Under the pieces are notes generated by a model. The model did not search any database and was not told the DNA's origin. It was given only the letters and a program-made list of their open reading frames with translations. From NCBI GenBank assembly GCA_964427055.1, contig CAYRSQ010000003.1, forward strand, positions 1 through 36,692: DNA of 36,692 nucleotides, in the 5' to 3' direction. Of this stretch, positions 5,474 to 31,222 are shown piece by piece. A program made the position numbers and the translations under genes. This DNA is from an uncultured archaeon (GTDB lineage Archaea; Aenigmatarchaeota; Aenigmatarchaeia; CG10238-14; SCSR01). The first letter of the stretch is position 1; the number at the start of each line of letters is the position of its first letter.

Positions 5474-5560
5474 GCGGCGATAGTCCAGTCTGGTTAAGAT
5501 ACGGCCCTGCCAATCCATAGCGGAACGGCCGCGACGCGGGTTCAAATCCCGCTCGCCGCA
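5474..5560 (+). tRNA. tRNA-Gly (anticodon GCC) with 13-nt intron (5513..5525) at canonical 37/38 position
   Basis: Acceptor GCGGCGA/TCGCCGC, anticodon stem CGGCC/GGCCG, loop C-T-GCC-A, T arm GCGGG-TTCAAAT-CCCGC. BHB: 4-bp helix CTGC(5507-5510):GCGG(5520-5523) flanked by 3-nt bulges CAA and AAC. Confidence 0.8.
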
Positions 5561-6167: not shown

Positions 6168-6303
6168 GCAGGGGTAGCGAAGCGGTCAAACGCGCTGGGC
6201 TCAAGATTATATTTTGAGCGCTGATTAAAGATGATGAAAGCGTGAGTGACATGAGAAACCCTGTGGCTTAGTGCCTTCGTGGGTTCGAATCCCACCCCCT
6301 GCA
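6168..6303 (+). tRNA. tRNA-Leu (anticodon CAA), type II with long variable arm, 52-nt intron (6206..6257)
   Basis: Acceptor GCAGGGG/CCCCTGC, D stem GCG/CGC, anticodon stem CTGGG/CCCTG (one U-U mismatch), loop CT-CAA-G. Long variable arm contains GGC…GCC. T arm GTGGG-TTCGAAT-CCCAC. BHB core: CTCA(32-35):TGAG(6252-6255) flanked by bulges AGA and AAA. Confidence 0.8.
6211..6237 (+). ncRNA. Intron-embedded box D'/C' K-loop-like guide element (antisense arm + CUGA + 6-nt loop + AUGAUGA)
   Basis: ATTTTGAGC(6211-6219) pairs with G31-U(6207). CTGA is at 6221-6224 and ATGATGA at 6231-6237. See finding. Confidence 0.4.
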
Positions 6304-9643: not shown

Positions 9644-9919
9644 GCAGAGAGCTAGGTCTGGGTGATTAGGCCACACCTACTTCGGAAAACGGTCTTTAGG
9701 TCCGAACTGAACGGCCTTGAAAGGTGCAGTTGGTGTAAATCGACCCGGATTCCGGACTGAGAAGCCTTGCCTCTATCGATTTGGGCGTGTGTGAACCCCC
9801 CAGGGCAGGAATGCAGCAAGGATAAGCATTCGTTCAAATGCTATAGGGTAAACAGGGTGGAGAAAGGAACCCGGACAATCGGTCTATGTCACCTGTAACG
9901 ATCTTGGTCCGCTCTCTGC
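9644..9919 (+). ncRNA. Signal recognition particle RNA (archaeal 7S RNA)
   Basis: The 5' GCAGAGAGC and 3' GCTCTCTGC ends form a perfect 9-bp terminal helix. Alu-domain hairpin GGTCT-GGGTGATT-AGGCC has a GGUG loop. Helix-8 signature is CAGGGCA-GGAA-TGC-AGCA-AGG (9801-9821; compare E. coli CAGGUCC-GGAA-GGA-AGCAGCC-AAGG). No credible CDS in the region. Confidence 0.8.
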
Positions 9920-25850: not shown

Positions 25851-25913
25851 TCTCTACTGCGCAAATTATAAAAGGGTAAACCGAGAGAAGAATTAGTATC
25901 TATTACCTAAAAT

Positions 25914-26028
25914 GGGGTCGTCGTCTAACCTGGCAGGACATCAGGCTCCAGGTTTGTTGACTTGGAGCTTTGACTCCAACATGATAAGAAGAAACCTGCT
26001 GATGGGGGTTCAAATCCCTCCGACCCCA
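25914..26028 (+). tRNA. tRNA-Trp (anticodon CCA) with 42-nt intron (25952..25993)
   Basis: Acceptor GGGGTCG/CGACCCC, D arm GTCT-AACCTGGCA-GGAC, anticodon stem TCAGG/CCTGC (27:43 mismatch), loop CT-CCA-G, T arm GGGGG-TTCAAAT-CCCTC. BHB-like core: CTCC:GAAG (3 of 4 pairs) flanked by bulges AGG and AAA. Confidence 0.8.
25961..25987 (+). ncRNA. Intron-embedded box D'/C' K-loop-like guide element (antisense arm + UUGA + 7-nt loop + AUGAUAA)
   Basis: CTTGGAGC(25961-25968) pairs with G31-G(25952). TTGA is at 25970-25973 and ATGATAA at 25981-25987. See finding. Confidence 0.35.
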
Positions 26029-26046
26029 CTCGACATACGTGATTGA

Positions 26047-26481
26047 ATGAGAATAGCTTTATGTGGCAGTCTGAGTCTTGGGAGGAGTTTTCTTGATGTA
26101 AAGAAAGAATTGGAGGATCTAGGCCACGAAGTTCTCATACCAGAATCCATACGAAAGTACAAGCTCGACACTGCAGAAGATGCTAAAAAGTTCAAATCGG
26201 AACAGTCTGGATACATGAAAATAAAGAACGTGTACATGAATGAGCATTTCGAAAAAATAGGAAGGAGCGATGCCATAGTTGTGATAAACAAGCCGAAAGG
26301 TGATGTAAAGAATTACATAGGTGGGAACACGTTTGCTGAAATAATAGTCGCGTTTTTCCTGAAAAAGAAAATTTTCCTGTTGAATCCCATACCGACTGAC
26401 GTTTCACTGAAAGTTTTCAGAGAAGAACTTGTGGGTGTAGAACCGACGATATTGTATGGAGACCTCAAACGGATTGAATAA
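26047..26481 (+). CDS. Small Rossmann-like protein, possibly nucleoside 2-deoxyribosyltransferase / DNPH1-like
   Basis: N-terminal MRIALCGSLS strand, and GGNTFAEIIVAFFLKKKIFLL with a conserved-looking Glu before a helix-strand unit. Weak recollection-based assignment. Confidence 0.35.
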   Translation: MRIALCGSLSLGRSFLDVKKELEDLGHEVLIPESIRKYKLDTAEDAKKFKSEQSGYMKIKNVYMNEHFEKIGRSDAIVVINKPKGDVKNYIGGNTFAEIIVAFFLKKKIFLLNPIPTDVSLKVFREELVGVEPTILYGDLKRIE

Positions 26482-27153
26482 TTATTTCCAGCCGTATTCA
26501 CCTTCAAGCGGAACGAACATCACAGAACCCAAATCTTTCATAACAGTGATACGCGAAGTTTTCTTAACGGCGACCAAGGTCTGACTTCCATTCGGATTAC
26601 CTACGGGTATAATTAACATGCCATTCGTTTTTAGCATATCAACAAGCACCTTTGGAATATCCGGACTAGTTGCACTCACTATTATTTTGTCGAACTTTTT
26701 CTTACCTGCAACTCTGCTTATATCCCCTAATATCATCGATACTTTCTTGCTGTACCCAGACTTCTCTAGGTTATTCTTAGCGAATCTATAGACATCAATC
26801 TTTATCTCAATCCCTGTCACTTCCCCCTTGGAACCTACTAATTCTTTCATGTAAGCCAGCAGTATGCCTGAACCAGCTCCCACCTCCAAAACGCAATCAC
26901 CGGGCTTCAGATTCAATTCAGAAAGAACCATTGCATGCATATGAGGCGCGGAGATTGTCGCATCGCTTGGTATCGGTAATGGATAATCGTTATAAGCACT
27001 ATCCCTGTATTCGCCTAGGACAAAATCCTCTCTCCTGACTTTTAGCATCGCAGCCTTTACCTTAGGACTTGTGATGCACTTTCCTTCTTCAAGAGAATCG
27101 ATTAGGTCCCTTCTCTGACGCTCAAACTTGTCGTTGTTTGCCACTATATTCAC
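26482..27153 (-). CDS. pcm: Protein-L-isoaspartate O-methyltransferase
   Basis: Motifs ISAPHMHAMVLSEL and SAM-binding VLEVGAGSGILLAYM, C-terminal …VMFVPL, length about 220 aa. Confidence 0.85.
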   Translation of the reverse strand: MNIVANNDKFERQRRDLIDSLEEGKCITSPKVKAAMLKVRREDFVLGEYRDSAYNDYPLPIPSDATISAPHMHAMVLSELNLKPGDCVLEVGAGSGILLAYMKELVGSKGEVTGIEIKIDVYRFAKNNLEKSGYSKKVSMILGDISRVAGKKKFDKIIVSATSPDIPKVLVDMLKTNGMLIIPVGNPNGSQTLVAVKKTSRITVMKDLGSVMFVPLEGEYGWK

Positions 27154-27250
27154 AAATCACAACTAAAGTTGACTATATTTAAGTCTTACAGAAAACTCCT
27201 GTTGCATCAGTAGTTTAAAAATTAAGTGCTAGTAAAGACAATTCTTTCTT

Positions 27251-28093
27251 ATGGGAATATCCAATTTGTCTAAAGCTGTCAAAAAACTAGAAACTGTAGA
27301 CATACAGGGAGCCACGGAGATTGCTATATTCTCATTGAAGACACTGAGAAGGATTGTAAAGAGAAAGGGATTCGGAAAAGAATTCAACGAAGCATCCCGT
27401 AAACTTGAAAGAGCTAGGCCAACCGCAGTGGTATTGCACAATTGCCTAAATATCCTGAAACGGGAAAAAACCATAGATTCAATAAACAGATTGATTGAAA
27501 CACTGGAAACTTCAGACGAGAAAATCTCCGAGAATGGAATCAAGTGTTTTGGTAAGAAGTCCTACAGGCTATTAACCCATTGCCATTCTAGTGAAGCCAT
27601 AGCTATGATAAAGGGACTTAAAAATAAAGGGAAAAACCTGTCTGTCATTGTGACACAGACCGACCCATTGGAACAAGGAATCAAGACCGCGAAAGAATTG
27701 AGTGGACAGAAAATACCAACAACATTAATAATCGATTCGGCAGTCGGACACTTCATAAATGACATAGATGCATTCGTGTTCGGCACTGATGCCATTCGAA
27801 AGGAAGGAATTGTCAACAAGATAGGAACTAAACTATATGCCATTGCCGCAAAAGAGAACAAAAAACCTGTTTACATAGTCGGCAACAACTTGAAATTGGA
27901 CAGAAGAAGAGAATTTGAAATGGAACAAAGATCTCCCAATGAAATCAAGAGAGAACTTTCCAGGCCATATGACTTGAGAGGAATCGTTATAAAAAATCCT
28001 GCATTTGACATAACTCCATGGAAATACGTCACAAGAGTCATAACTGAAGAGGGTGTCTTCACTCCGTCACAAATACAGAGGATGTTAAGATGA
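27251..28093 (+). CDS. e2b2: Ribose-1,5-bisphosphate isomerase (eIF-2B alpha/beta/delta-like family)
   Basis: eIF-2B-family motifs VDIQGATEIA, LLTHCHSSEAI (catalytic Cys context) and VFGTDAIRKEG (Asp). Its stop overlaps the rbcL ATG (ATGA at 28090-28093). Confidence 0.75.
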   Translation: MGISNLSKAVKKLETVDIQGATEIAIFSLKTLRRIVKRKGFGKEFNEASRKLERARPTAVVLHNCLNILKREKTIDSINRLIETLETSDEKISENGIKCFGKKSYRLLTHCHSSEAIAMIKGLKNKGKNLSVIVTQTDPLEQGIKTAKELSGQKIPTTLIIDSAVGHFINDIDAFVFGTDAIRKEGIVNKIGTKLYAIAAKENKKPVYIVGNNLKLDRRREFEMEQRSPNEIKRELSRPYDLRGIVIKNPAFDITPWKYVTRVITEEGVFTPSQIQRMLR

Positions 28094-29310
28094 AGTACGA
28101 GGATTTCATAGACACGAAATACAAACCTAAAGGAAGAGACGTCGTGTGTGAATTTTTAGTAGAGCCTAACAAGGTGAATATGAAACATGCGGCAGGCGGG
28201 ATTGCTGCTGAAAGCTCCATAGGCACGTGGACAGAACTGGAGACCATGAAAACCAGCATCGAAAAGTTATCGGCTAAAGTATTCCAGATAAATGGGAACA
28301 AAATAGAAATCGCGTACCCACTTGATCTCTTTGAACTTGGAAACATGCCAAACCTGTTGAGCAGCGTTGCTGGGAATGTATTCGGACTCAAGGAGATTAG
28401 GAACCTCAGACTGAATGATATAGAATTTCCCAGAAGATTCGTTAAGAGTTTTGACGGTCCGAAATACGGGATCAGTGGTATCAGAAAACTAACTGGAGTA
28501 AAAGACAGACCATTTCTCGGAACCATAATAAAACCCAAATTGGGACTAAGTTCGATAGACCATTCGAAAATAGCATACGAAGCATGGATTGGAGGATGTG
28601 ACATAGTTAAAGACGACGAAAACCTGGCGAATCAAAATTTCAATAAATTTAGGACGAGGGTAACATCCACGCTGAAAAGCAGAGACAAAGCTGAGAAGGA
28701 AACTGGGGAAATGAAACTGTATATGGCAAACGTGACTGCAGAAACGAATGAGATGATAAAGCGAGCGAAGTTTCTTGAAAAAGAAGGCGGGAGATACGTC
28801 ATGGTCGACGTCCTCACAGTAGGATGGGGGGCGCTTCAGACATTAAGAAATGAGGACTTGGATATGGTACTTCATGGACACAGAGCAATGCATGCGGCCA
28901 TAACAAAGAACAAAAAACATGGAATCTCCATGAAAGTGTTAGCTAAACTATTAAGGATAGTAGGAGTAGACCAGTTGCATGTCGGGACTGGAATCGGTAA
29001 AATGAGTGAAAGCGTGCCCGAAGTCAGAGAAAATATAAGTGCACTGACTCAGACCCTTTACGGAACCAAAAAAACTATGCCTGTCGCTTCTGGAGGCATA
29101 CATCCGCTGTTGATACCGGATTTGATAAGTATTTTTGGGAAAGATGTTGTAATACAGATGGGAGGCGGCATACATGGACATCCCATGGGAACGGAATCCG
29201 GTTCCATTGCAGCTAGGCAGGCTCTGTTGTCCTGTAAGGACAACATTCCACTTAAAAAGTTTGCTAAGAGCCATAAAGAACTCGATGACGCAATAAGAAA
29301 ATGGAAATAG
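28090..29310 (+). CDS. rbcL: Ribulose-1,5-bisphosphate carboxylase large subunit, form III-like
   Basis: Active-site motifs GTIIKPKLGLS, GGCDIVKDDENL (carbamyl-Lys/Asp/Glu), LHGHRAMHAA, ASGGIHP and QMGGGIHGHP. Confidence 0.9.
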   Translation: MKYEDFIDTKYKPKGRDVVCEFLVEPNKVNMKHAAGGIAAESSIGTWTELETMKTSIEKLSAKVFQINGNKIEIAYPLDLFELGNMPNLLSSVAGNVFGLKEIRNLRLNDIEFPRRFVKSFDGPKYGISGIRKLTGVKDRPFLGTIIKPKLGLSSIDHSKIAYEAWIGGCDIVKDDENLANQNFNKFRTRVTSTLKSRDKAEKETGEMKLYMANVTAETNEMIKRAKFLEKEGGRYVMVDVLTVGWGALQTLRNEDLDMVLHGHRAMHAAITKNKKHGISMKVLAKLLRIVGVDQLHVGTGIGKMSESVPEVRENISALTQTLYGTKKTMPVASGGIHPLLIPDLISIFGKDVVIQMGGGIHGHPMGTESGSIAARQALLSCKDNIPLKKFAKSHKELDDAIRKWK

Positions 29311-30860
29311 TGATAATAGTGAAATTGAAAGTCAAGATACTGGGAATGAGCGCTGGAGACAAGCCTATTGTGGTTCTAAATAACGACACGGCTGAAGATA
29401 TGGGAGTGATAAGTCTCAATAGAATTGTATTGGAACGCGGAGAAAAAAGTGTAATCGGCATTGTTAACACTTCTAAGAACGTGGTTGGAAAGGGGGAAAT
29501 AGGACTGTTCGATGAGATAATCAAAAACATGGACTTGAAAAATGGCATGGATATATCTGTGAAAATTTCCAGTCAACCAGCTTCGATAGAACACATAAAG
29601 TCAAGATTGAAGGGGAGAAAACTCAGAGAGGATGAAATATTTGAAATTGTAAAGGATGTAGTTGACAATAGACTCAGCGAAATTGAAATCTCAACTTTCG
29701 TTACTTCCCTTAACAACCATCCGATGGACATAGATGAGATTGTCGGGATGACAAGGGCCATGGTCAAAACCGGGAAGACATTGGAATTGAATAGTTCATA
29801 CATCGTCGATAAGCATTCTATAGGAGGCGTTCCCGGAGATAAGACGACACTGCTCGTCGTGCCCATAATAGCGGCATGTGGAATAACGATACCAAAGACT
29901 TCGTCTAGGGCTATAACCTCTGCAGCTGGCACTGGGGACAGGGCTGAAACCTTGATGCCAGTAGAACTGAGTGTAGAGGAGATGAAGACCGTCGTGAAAA
30001 AGACTAATGGGTGTATAGTATGGGGAGGGTCACTCGAACTAGCCCCCGCAGACGACATCTTCATCAAAGTCGAATATCCACTATCTATAGACCCTATGAT
30101 GATACCTTCCATAATGAGCAAAAAGAAGGCAGTCGGCGCTGAATATCTACTCATAGACATTCCGTGCGGGAGAGGAACTAAGGTAAAAAGCATGGGGGAT
30201 GCTAATTTCCTGGCAAGAGACTTCATAGAGATTGGTAAAAGGTTGGGAATCACCACAAGATGTGCTATAACGTATGGAGAACAGCCCATAGGATACACGA
30301 TTGGTGCCGGACTGGAGGCCAAGGAAGCATTAGAAGTATTGATGAGGCAACGTAACGTACCAGACCTTTTGGAGAAAGCCAAGGGCATATCAAAAATTCT
30401 TCTGAACATGATAGGAAAAGATGGTGACAGAATGGTGGAAGATGTTTTCAAATCCGGAAAAGCCGAGGAGAAACTCAGAGAGATTATATTTGAACAAGGA
30501 GGGGATTCTGAAATAACACCAGACGATATACCTATAGGTAAGTACGGGCTTGACGTGGTATCTGAAAGTTCAGGGCATGTTCTATGGATGAACAATCACC
30601 AATTGGCATCAATAGCGAGGGCGGCAGGATCTCCAAAAGATAAGGGTGCCGGAATAGAACTTTATAAAAAAATAGGGGACAAAATCGATAAGGGAGAAAG
30701 ACTGTTCACCATATACTCGGAGAAGACGAGAAAGCTTAAACACGCAAAGGAAAAATTGGAGGAAGAATATCCGATAGAAATTGGTGAACGAAGAAGAATG
30801 CTGATAAGAGAGATTTCTGAACAGAATCCGATTAAAAAACCTTTCCTGCTAGAAAGCTGA
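29301..30860 (+). CDS. deoA: AMP phosphorylase (thymidine phosphorylase family)
   Basis: N-terminal KLKVKILGMSAGDKPIVVLNNDTAEDMGV domain typical of archaeal AMPpase, glycosyl-transferase-family-3 motif HSIGGVPGDKTTLLVVPIIAACG, and C-terminal alpha/beta domain. GTG 29319 just after the rbcL stop is an alternative start. Confidence 0.85.
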   Translation: MEIVIIVKLKVKILGMSAGDKPIVVLNNDTAEDMGVISLNRIVLERGEKSVIGIVNTSKNVVGKGEIGLFDEIIKNMDLKNGMDISVKISSQPASIEHIKSRLKGRKLREDEIFEIVKDVVDNRLSEIEISTFVTSLNNHPMDIDEIVGMTRAMVKTGKTLELNSSYIVDKHSIGGVPGDKTTLLVVPIIAACGITIPKTSSRAITSAAGTGDRAETLMPVELSVEEMKTVVKKTNGCIVWGGSLELAPADDIFIKVEYPLSIDPMMIPSIMSKKKAVGAEYLLIDIPCGRGTKVKSMGDANFLARDFIEIGKRLGITTRCAITYGEQPIGYTIGAGLEAKEALEVLMRQRNVPDLLEKAKGISKILLNMIGKDGDRMVEDVFKSGKAEEKLREIIFEQGGDSEITPDDIPIGKYGLDVVSESSGHVLWMNNHQLASIARAAGSPKDKGAGIELYKKIGDKIDKGERLFTIYSEKTRKLKHAKEKLEEEYPIEIGERRRMLIREISEQNPIKKPFLLES

Positions 30861-30910
30861 CTAAAAAGTGAATGCGGGGATTGAATAACCTTCCCCATTT
30901 TTCAACGAAA

Positions 30911-31222
30911 TCATTTAGACAGCGTGATGCTTATCGTCGAGACATTTATCTTGGATTTATCCTGAAGTTCTCTTTCCTCTGTTCCTATGTCTATGTTTTT
31001 TATGTGGACATCACTTATGAATTTCTTTCTGGATATTTCAGCGACATCGACTGCTCTCGATATGGCCTTTCCCCTCGCCTTGATATCGACTGATGATTTA
31101 CCATCATTGAATTGTGTTATCACTCCCAAAACATATGCCATGCTAGGTTTTCTCCCAACGTATATTACATTCTCGTCTTCTCTATCATCTGACATGTTTT
31201 CTGTTGTTAATTCTTCTGTCAT
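30911..31222 (-). CDS. albA: Alba DNA/RNA-binding protein
   Basis: [21 protein letters not shown]…[24 protein letters not shown] is the Alba signature. It is preceded by a roughly 17-aa acidic N-terminal extension. Confidence 0.85.

Follow-up and report, generated by a model that had tools for sequence, protein, structure and literature searches.

A single guide and kink-loop in the tRNA-Trp intron of an uncultured DPANN archaeon: conservation among relatives and a candidate role in C34 methylation

Box C/D guide RNAs that reside in tRNA introns have been described for euryarchaeal tRNA-Trp and for one Nanoarchaeum tRNA-Met intron, and all of them are complete RNAs with two motifs (PMC11408192, PMC3491384). 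According to the author of the Nanoarchaeum study, such RNAs had previously been recognized solely in tRNA-Trp introns, "in few archaea" (PMC3491384). The tRNA-Trp intron of Haloferax is 103 nt long and constitutes a complete box C/D RNA for C34 and U39 (PMC7714728, PMC11408192, PMC4090602). Here we analyzed a 42-nt intron in the tRNA-Trp(CCA) gene of an uncultured archaeon assigned to the Aenigmatarchaeota, located in a stretch of 36,692 nt (GenBank assembly GCA_964427055.1, contig CAYRSQ010000003.1, positions 1–36692) that we refer to as a whole as the 36.7-kb window. We suggest that this intron is probably a cis-encoded, single-site (half-mer) box C/D-type guide for 2′-O-methylation of C34 (Cm34) that acts through L7Ae, Nop5, and fibrillarin prior to splicing.

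[quoted passage not shown] In both, guide pairing and the bulge-helix-bulge (BHB) splicing motif are mutually exclusive. The euryarchaeal introns measure 60 to 105 nt and have a full set of C, D′, C′, and D boxes with two guides (C34 and U39), whereas the introns considered here have one box pair and one guide within 29 to 50 nt. Singh 2004 reportedly assigned the guiding of Haloferax C34 to the terminal C/D motif. Because the box after the C34 guide in our intron instead pairs with a 3′ C-type box across a loop, the present form would not be a simple deletion derivative of the Haloferax intron.

Other described systems share only parts of this design. The tRNA-Met intron of Nanoarchaeum equitans likewise places a box C/D-like sRNA (small RNA) within a tRNA intron of a DPANN-type archaeon, but it is 66 nt long, belongs to another tRNA, and, having C and D boxes at its ends together with a GC hairpin, is not a lone K-loop (PMC3491384). 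Pyrobaculum sR26 has the same target nucleotide and N+5 logic, but it is a trans-acting, dual-motif sRNA gene and not an intron (PMC6009581). The C′/D′ kink-loop (K-loop) of archaeal sRNAs (PMC7994747, PMC6009581) shows the same order of D′ box, loop, and C′ box, the same GA/GA sheared pairs, U·U pair, and Watson-Crick pair between the first D′ and sixth C′ positions (D′1:C′6), and the same guide placed directly 5′ of D′, from which a single unpaired base separates it. Unlike it, the intron motif stands alone, with no terminal C/D kink-turn (K-turn) in the same RNA, and its boxes follow a looser consensus, YUGA (in rare cases CGGA or CAGA) and AUGA[U/A]RR, some of its loops being a C-stem, which makes the motif a K-turn. 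Engineered half-mer box C/D ribonucleoproteins (RNPs) also combine one K-motif with one guide (PMC1635284, PMC3608112), and in vitro such RNAs form complexes with L7Ae, Nop5, and fibrillarin (PMC1635284; crystal structures reviewed in PMC3608112). These particles are artificial and were reported to be either nonspecific or poorly active, whereas the intron family is natural, conserved, and located in cis beside its presumed target. In the searchable literature, including a 2026 Nanobdellota preprint, we found no account of DPANN intron guides with one motif, an absence that does not prove novelty.

The guide-like element in the tRNA-Trp and tRNA-Leu(CAA) introns

The tRNA-Trp gene and the elements of its intron are listed in Table 1. 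As RNA, the intron reads, in order, GUUUGUUGA CUUGGAGC U UUGA CUCCAAC AUGAUAA GAAGAA. A first-pass annotation made from the DNA sequence alone had proposed that CTTGGAGC (25961–25968) forms 8 bp with 25945–25952. This pairing is present, one G·U pair included (G25951·T25962), and the helix is in fact longer, as it extends through T25953-A25960 and a further G·U pair (T25954·G25959) to 25945–25954/25959–25968; the register-anchored count of contiguous pairs is 11. The guide helix was dominant in unconstrained, whole-gene, and cloverleaf-constrained folds. The annotation had further placed, after one spacer base, TTGA at 25970–25973, a 7-nt loop, and ATGATAA at 25981–25987, and all of these were found where it had put them. 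G25965, the fifth base upstream of UUGA, lies opposite C34 (25948), as it had also claimed, and its reading of the intron as one K-loop half-guide, with C34 in the N+5 position and no second box pair, is supported. Rfam searches of 25880–26060 at E values up to 10 returned nothing significant besides the tRNA model, and no sRNA or small nucleolar RNA family was detected on the intron.

The tRNA-Leu(CAA) gene of the window carries a 52-nt intron of the same design. Its guide TTTTGAGC (6212–6219) is followed by spacer G6220, CUGA (6221–6224), a 6-nt loop (6225–6230), and AUGAUGA (6231–6237), so that the RNA reads UUUUGAGC G CUGA UUAAAG AUGAUGA. G6216 pairs with C34 (6202), in agreement with the earlier observation that the two introns match in order and register, and CUCA and UGAG (6252–6255) make a perfect BHB helix. 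Relatives of this locus were found through homologs of the neighboring acetyl-CoA synthetase-like gene and then through their contigs; the best named homologs of the protein belong to Candidatus Aenigmatarchaeota, at no more than 61% identity. Together with synteny to L055, these homologs indicate that the window most likely comes from a divergent Aenigmatarchaeota-like member of the DPANN archaea, in agreement with the DPANN placement in the first-pass annotation. Three further syntenic tRNA-Leu(CAA) genes, all on the minus strand, retain the design. L164 (11945–12082) has UUUUGAGC G CUGA UUAAAC AUGAUGA with a different remaining 3′ intron half, L165 (14133–14273) has CUUGAGU G CAGA and AUGAAGA, and L169 (4750–4886) has CUUGAGC U UUGA, a 16-nt loop, and AUGAAAA. 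In L165, A31 faces a guide U in place of the G31-C pair of the others, so that the change is compensated within the guide helix. The N+5 register on C34 is kept in all four Leu introns. The literature on archaeal intron guides that we surveyed makes no mention of a guide borne by a tRNA-Leu intron.

Table 1. Positions of the tRNA-Trp gene, its intron elements, and other features in the window
Feature	Position	Strand	Basis or remark
tRNA-Trp(CCA) gene with intron	25914–26028	+	Rfam RF00005, 45.9 bits, full model, with a 46-nt insert within the anticodon loop; stems read from sequence
Acceptor stem	25914–25920 / 26021–26027	+	
D stem	25923–25926 / 25936–25939	+	
Anticodon stem, U27-G31 / C39-C43	25941–25945 / 25995–25999	+	U27·C43 mismatched
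Anticodon loop, C32 U33 C34 C35 A36 G37	25946–25951	+	CCA at 25948–25950; G37 at 25951
Target strand: G31, C32-G37, first two intron bases	25945–25953	+	C34 at 25948; pairs with 25960–25968 in every fold
Canonical 37/38 intron, 42 nt	25952–25993	+	Rfam insert; boundaries CUCCAG / ACCUG identical in all relatives
Intron leader GUUUGUUG	25952–25959	+	Kept only in the window's clade (L155, L136, L138, L129 group)
Guide ACUUGGAGC	25960–25968	+	Core UGGAGC shared by 26 of 27 introns of the family, L151 having UGGAGA
Spacer base T25969	25969	+	Always one base; U, A, or G across the family
D′-type box UUGA	25970–25973	+	GA invariant; position 1 covaries with C′ position 6
Loop of K-loop, CUCCAAC, 7 nt	25974–25980	+	Mimics the anticodon loop; can pair with the guide
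C′-type box AUGAUAA	25981–25987	+	U-G-A core in 23 of 23; A25986 pairs with U25970
GAAGAA tail	25988–25993	+	GAAG, 3′ strand of BHB central helix; AA and A38, 3′ bulge
3′ exon	From A38 (25994)	+	Variable loop of 4 nt
T arm	26004–26020	+	
tRNA-Leu(CAA) gene; intron 6206–6257, 52 nt	6168–6303	+	Rfam match and sequence reading; same design
tRNA-splicing endonuclease (EndA), 205 aa	18454–19071	−	Pfam tRNA_int_endo_N and tRNA_int_endo
Archaeal signal recognition particle RNA	9645–9918	+	97.6 bits, barely above the Rfam gathering score of 96.5

With default settings, ARAGORN overlooks the tRNA-Trp gene, and with option -i on 25914–26029 it reports a tRNA-Gly(UCC) with a 27-nt intron, a call caused by the resemblance of CUCCAAC to an anticodon loop. 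Several relatives' tRNA-Trp genes are likewise miscalled by ARAGORN as Gly, Phe, Lys, or Leu. We rejected the Gly(UCC) call and other placements of the intron in which the internal CUCCAA copy becomes the anticodon loop; they yield no valid anticodon arm or BHB, and Rfam favors the 37/38 site.

Conservation and covariation in relatives

We retrieved tRNA-Trp loci of relatives with patterns that consisted of exon bases only and made no selection on intron content. Scanning the GTDB representative genomes with CTCCAR-N30-60-GGGGTTCAAATCCC gave mostly bacterial noise and at least about 18 usable archaeal tRNA-Trp loci, while a near-exact exon pattern gave no match across these genomes, so that neither the window's genome nor its close kin is represented among them. 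Scanning JGI metagenomes with AGGCTCCAG-N20-50-ACCT-N7-GGGGTTCAAATCCC gave 44 loci; L-labels designate the retrieved tRNA loci or contigs of relatives. At least 63 tRNA-Trp genes were parsed, with at least 49 distinct introns of 20 to 50 nt, and among the matches listed the layout guide-N-xUGA-loop-AUGAxxx was common to 27 of 49 distinct introns. Members of this family have a leader of 1 to 13 nt, the guide core UGGAGC, exactly one spacer base, a D′ box of the form xUGA (UUGA, CUGA, or AUGA, with CGGA and CAGA once each), a loop of 6 to 17 nt, AUGA[U/A]RR, and a tail mostly ending in GAAGAA. They measure 29 to 50 nt, and their leaders, loops, and tails differ in both length and sequence. The window's 42 nt had been taken for a minimal form, but the shortest members have only 29 to 30 nt (L135/L142, U AAUGGAGC U CUGA UGAAAAA AUGAAGA A), and in these the C′ box overlaps a strand of the splice-site helix. 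By their NCBI labels, members belong to Undinarchaeota (L007), Aenigmatarchaeota (L055, L087), Nanoarchaeia (L069), Micrarchaeota (L107), and Woesearchaeota (L111).

Conservation was quantified in an ungapped alignment of 23 distinct sequences (A1) made up of five segments: positions 27 to 37; the guide with spacer and D′ box; the C′ box; the intron's final 6 nt; and positions 38 to 43. The guide pairs with G31, C32, U33, C34, C35, and A36 in 22 to 23 of the 23 sequences. All 27 Trp introns have a single spacer base between guide and box, and since this spacing never varies, C34 is always opposite the fifth base upstream of the box. At the sequence level, the GA of D′ (columns 23 and 24) and the GA of C′ (columns 27 and 28) are invariant, and the C′ position before GA (column 26) is T in 23 of 23. 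The first-pass annotation had raised the possibility that the boxes vary freely among relatives that keep the BHB; across these 23 members, they do not drift.

The D′1:C′6 pair, by comparison, changes on both sides. It is U-A in 12 sequences, C-G in 6, U-G in 3, A-U in 1, and unpaired in 1 (n = 23), and double-sided changes occur in seven sequences. Pair types differ even where exons are near-identical, as with UUGA/AUGAUAA in L155 and CUGA/AUGAAGA in L135. The window's AUGAUAA had been scored earlier as matching six of seven positions of the C′ consensus. The count is right, but this covariation indicates that the departing base is compensated by UUGA, with U25970-A25986 replacing C-G. In several members with long loops, the loop folds, by minimum free energy, into a stem that starts directly after D′ and ends 3 nt before the C′ GA; the 3-nt bulges of L007, L163, L069, and L137 are GAU, GAU, AAU, and GGU, and their stems are unrelated in sequence. 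Such an arrangement is what defines a K-turn. According to a review, L7Ae binding needs two sheared G·A pairs and the box C uridine (PMC7994747), and the invariant features of the Trp introns coincide with this list. The K-motif of the family can thus be considered established as far as sequence comparison can reach. From the combined Trp and Leu data, we likewise regard as established, at the level of comparative evidence, a conserved element of these introns that pairs a predicted anticodon-loop guide in a fixed N+5 register with a covarying K-loop or K-turn.

The nearest relatives of the window's intron, among the matches listed, are L155, L136, L138, and the L129/132/141/149 group. The tRNA-Trp gene has the same neighbors in the window, in those relatives, and in L142, L162, L055, L160, L125, and L107. 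The conserved neighbors encode a protein-isoaspartate methyltransferase, a ribose-1,5-bisphosphate isomerase-like (e2B2-like) protein, a form III RuBisCO, an AMP phosphorylase, and Alba; the cluster occupies 26482–31222 in the window and is syntenic in more than 10 contigs. Because the neighboring proteins of syntenic orthologs are just 50 to 70% identical, the intron core has been kept across deep divergence. Database homologs of the cluster proteins reach ∼60 to 70% identity at best, which indicates that the lineage is poorly sampled.

Two features are confined to the window's clade. A second UUGA (25957–25960) lies immediately 5′ of the guide, and guide positions 25962–25967 can form six contiguous pairs with loop positions 25974–25979, a match reached by 2.4% of loop shuffles; per sequence in the clade, such complementarity is reached by ∼2 to 5% of loop shuffles. 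The second UUGA, the loop mimic, and the C′ box could together fold into another K-turn, slightly off canon, in which the guide would be hidden, be it as a switch or as an accident of descent.

Other insertions were noted during this survey. A second insertion of ∼15 to 30 nt in the D arm or at position 26 of tRNA-Trp was seen in L122, L128/L150, L129, L145, L151, and L153, the comparison of L153 with L120 providing an example; these are probably additional noncanonical introns. In L170 (5927–6027), a tRNA-Cys(GCA) gene with a 30-nt intron (AACUGGUAUG CUGA UUA AUGAUGC GAAGAU), a K-loop was recognized by eye in this single case. Its guide, again by eye, pairs with the last two intron bases and positions 38 to 42 and places C39 at N+5; position 39 is the second methylated site of Haloferax tRNA-Trp. 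Introns of tRNA-Thr(UGU) in L146 and L162 contain CUGA and GAUGA, but their CUGA repeats the anticodon stem and cannot be brought into any guide register; these introns were not counted.

Competing folds and the proposed mechanism

Geometry, conservation, K-motif covariation, and the exclusivity and relative energies of the folds are direct observations of this analysis. In the BHB of the window's tRNA-Trp, C32-C35 pair with GAAG (25988–25991) in a relaxed form with bulges A36-G37/G and A-A/A38. Across the family (n = 23), C32-G is formed in 22 sequences, U33-A in 21, and C35-G in 20, and C34 is paired in 5. The C34·A mismatch in the central helix (25948/25989 in the window) is the rule, in 18 of 23, the tail being GAAG and not GGAG; the mismatch and the GAAGAA end also occur in related introns without boxes. 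For the anticodon arm (25941–25999), guide-bound folds had energies of −13.4 to −18.2 kcal/mol, compared with −5.8 kcal/mol for the splice-competent fold. The guide helix and the BHB are mutually exclusive, as both use C32-C35, and the guide helix in addition buries the 5′ splice site. On these grounds, methylation should precede splicing. In the simplest interpretation, the RNA first adopts the guide state, which then has to be undone for cleavage to occur. The EndA encoded in the window is the enzyme that would excise both introns; at only 205 aa it comprises an N-terminal and a catalytic domain, and BHB motifs in the same genome are relaxed.

In the pathway that we propose, ACUUGGAGC would pair in the pre-tRNA with G31-G37 and the first intron bases, and UUGA and AUGAUAA, directly 3′ of the guide, would form the K-loop through sheared G25972·A25984 and A25973·G25983 pairs, a U·U pair (25971·25985), and the Watson-Crick pair U25970-A25986. 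After L7Ae had bound here, Nop5-fibrillarin would be recruited, and fibrillarin would methylate the 2′-OH of C34, opposite the fifth guide position, to yield Cm34. The methylated RNA would then refold so that C32-C35 pair with GAAG, and the endonuclease would cut. Protein binding, methyl transfer, action in cis rather than in trans, and the order of events are steps that we infer. Pairing in cis would leave a hairpin loop of at least 3 nt in every member of the family.

Several points weigh against such a guide function. The contiguous guide-target duplex has a family median of 6 bp (11 in the window), and the guides of free-standing archaeal sRNAs have 10 to 12 nt. Since the target is the invariant anticodon loop, most of the guide helix cannot show covariation, and L007 has a C·U combination at D′1:C′6. 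Introns of 25 to 33 nt that consist of a simple hairpin and AGAAGAA, with neither guide nor boxes, occur in tRNA-Trp genes with very similar exons (L097, L105, L130, L131, L134, L139, L144, L147, L152, L157, and L159), and their presence in related exon families means that the element is dispensable in some lineages, where it was either lost or never gained. The 36.7-kb window contains no genes for fibrillarin, Nop5, or L7Ae; a survey recorded fibrillarin in 140 of 148 (95%) archaeal species (PMC7608942). A regular expression for canonical dual-guide sRNAs likewise gave no full match in the window. Finally, single-site RNPs were reported to be inactive in vitro or active without site specificity (PMC1635284), and the Trp intron has no second K-motif, which in vitro work calls necessary.

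Two further candidates were discarded. A looser box C-to-box D pattern had one match (30096–30142), which lies inside a coding region and was attributed to chance. A circularized intron, in which the leader UUGA would follow the C′ box after 11 nt, was also considered, but a single C-type box cannot serve two D boxes, and by eye such a guide had no evident target in tRNA-Trp.

Alternative explanations and significance

A different function could be served by the same structure. The conserved K-turn or K-loop and a helix that masks the anticodon might form a folding or quality-control device without guiding methylation, one that holds the pre-tRNA in a splice-incompetent state, protects the anticodon, or times splicing, via L7Ae or through the helix itself. 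The covariation and invariant bases prove a K-motif and not methyl transfer, and the guide-bound fold, whose stability greatly exceeds that of the BHB fold, sequesters the 5′ splice site. The short duplexes of most members, the insufficiency of a lone K-motif for specific methylation in vitro, and the target mimic and second UUGA of the window's clade, which could toggle the structure, also fit this explanation. However, a simple masking helix would need no particular register, and the N+5 distance is fixed in 27 Trp and 4 Leu introns. Furthermore, guided methylation of tRNA-Trp at C34 is already known from two other archaeal lineages, the site being intron-guided in Haloferax (PMC11408192, PMC7714728) and targeted by the free sRNA sR26 in Pyrobaculum (PMC6009581). 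We consider such a device without methylation unlikely, yet it is the main competitor of the guide model.

It is highly improbable that the intron is a complete but degenerate box C/D RNA with two guides, in which UGUUGA (25955–25960) would be box C and the exon CUGA (25999–26002) box D. The spacers of such an RNA, 9 and 11 nt, would be near canonical, and GAAGAAACCUG could pair with CAGGUUU (25949–25955). But UGUUGA is without the first GA of the sheared pairs, the leader that contains it is missing in short members, and the target of the would-be D guide is an intron base. The first-pass annotation had correctly placed the exon CTGA 11 nt past the C′ box and had doubted its role as a box; this doubt is borne out, as CTGA is absent from the variable loops of all relatives (e.g., UCAU, CGAU, and AAGU). 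A second box pair was not found in the Trp intron, members of 29 to 35 nt are too short for one (those of 29 to 30 nt simply have no room), and no guide complementary to position 39 (C25995) was found in the intron. We give almost no credence, either, to a resemblance by chance or to the view that the element is a neutral remnant, kept by descent, of a full-length guide intron in an ancestor. The box-pair regular expression by itself had 4 matches across the window compared with ∼3 expected (our rough estimate), which is not significant; two of the four are the Trp and Leu introns, and it is the combination inside tRNA introns that counts. Two of the three tRNA introns of the window have the design; the third, in tRNA-Gly(GCC) (5474–5560, plus strand), is 13 nt long, forms a perfect BHB helix of 4 bp, and is devoid of boxes. 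Kinship among many family members means that counts are not independent, and the element was lost in some relatives. On the other hand, a composite pattern with 8 or more guide base pairs in the C34 register, followed by NUGA and by UGAU 2 to 12 nt downstream, arose in 5 of 300,000 shuffles of the Trp intron and 3 of 200,000 of the Leu intron, or ∼2 per 100,000, in line with the earlier judgment that chance was an unlikely source. The family layout matched 159 of 98,000 shuffled introns (0.16%) and 27 of 49 real ones (55%). The core has stayed invariant while its flanks turned over, in contigs whose proteins are only 50 to 70% identical; double-sided changes preserve the D′1:C′6 pair; and C-stems have arisen independently in the exact K-turn register.

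Taken together, these data favor the interpretation of the Trp intron as a single-site guide for Cm34. We propose more tentatively that DPANN archaea may use an undescribed class of natural single-site box C/D RNPs within tRNA introns as a methylate-then-splice checkpoint in cis. Candidate sites are C34 of tRNA-Trp, C34 of tRNA-Leu(CAA), and possibly C39 of tRNA-Cys. Specificity without a second K-motif might come from the geometry of the cis hairpin or from two introns sharing one Nop5 dimer.

If this is true, the one-motif version, with its 29 to 50 nt and its conservation across several DPANN lineages, would rank as the smallest box C/D-type guide in nature and would call into question the in vitro rule by which site-specific methylation requires two K-motifs. 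The 42-nt intron or the 115-nt pre-tRNA would offer a very small substrate for work on the order of methylation and splicing. tRNA-Trp has been reported as "missing" from many DPANN genomes (bioRxiv 10.64898/2026.05.13.725050), and the guide and anticodon mimic, by confusing tRNA finders, may contribute to this impression. For the organisms themselves, a guide of this kind would provide a selective reason for genome-reduced archaea to retain these introns.

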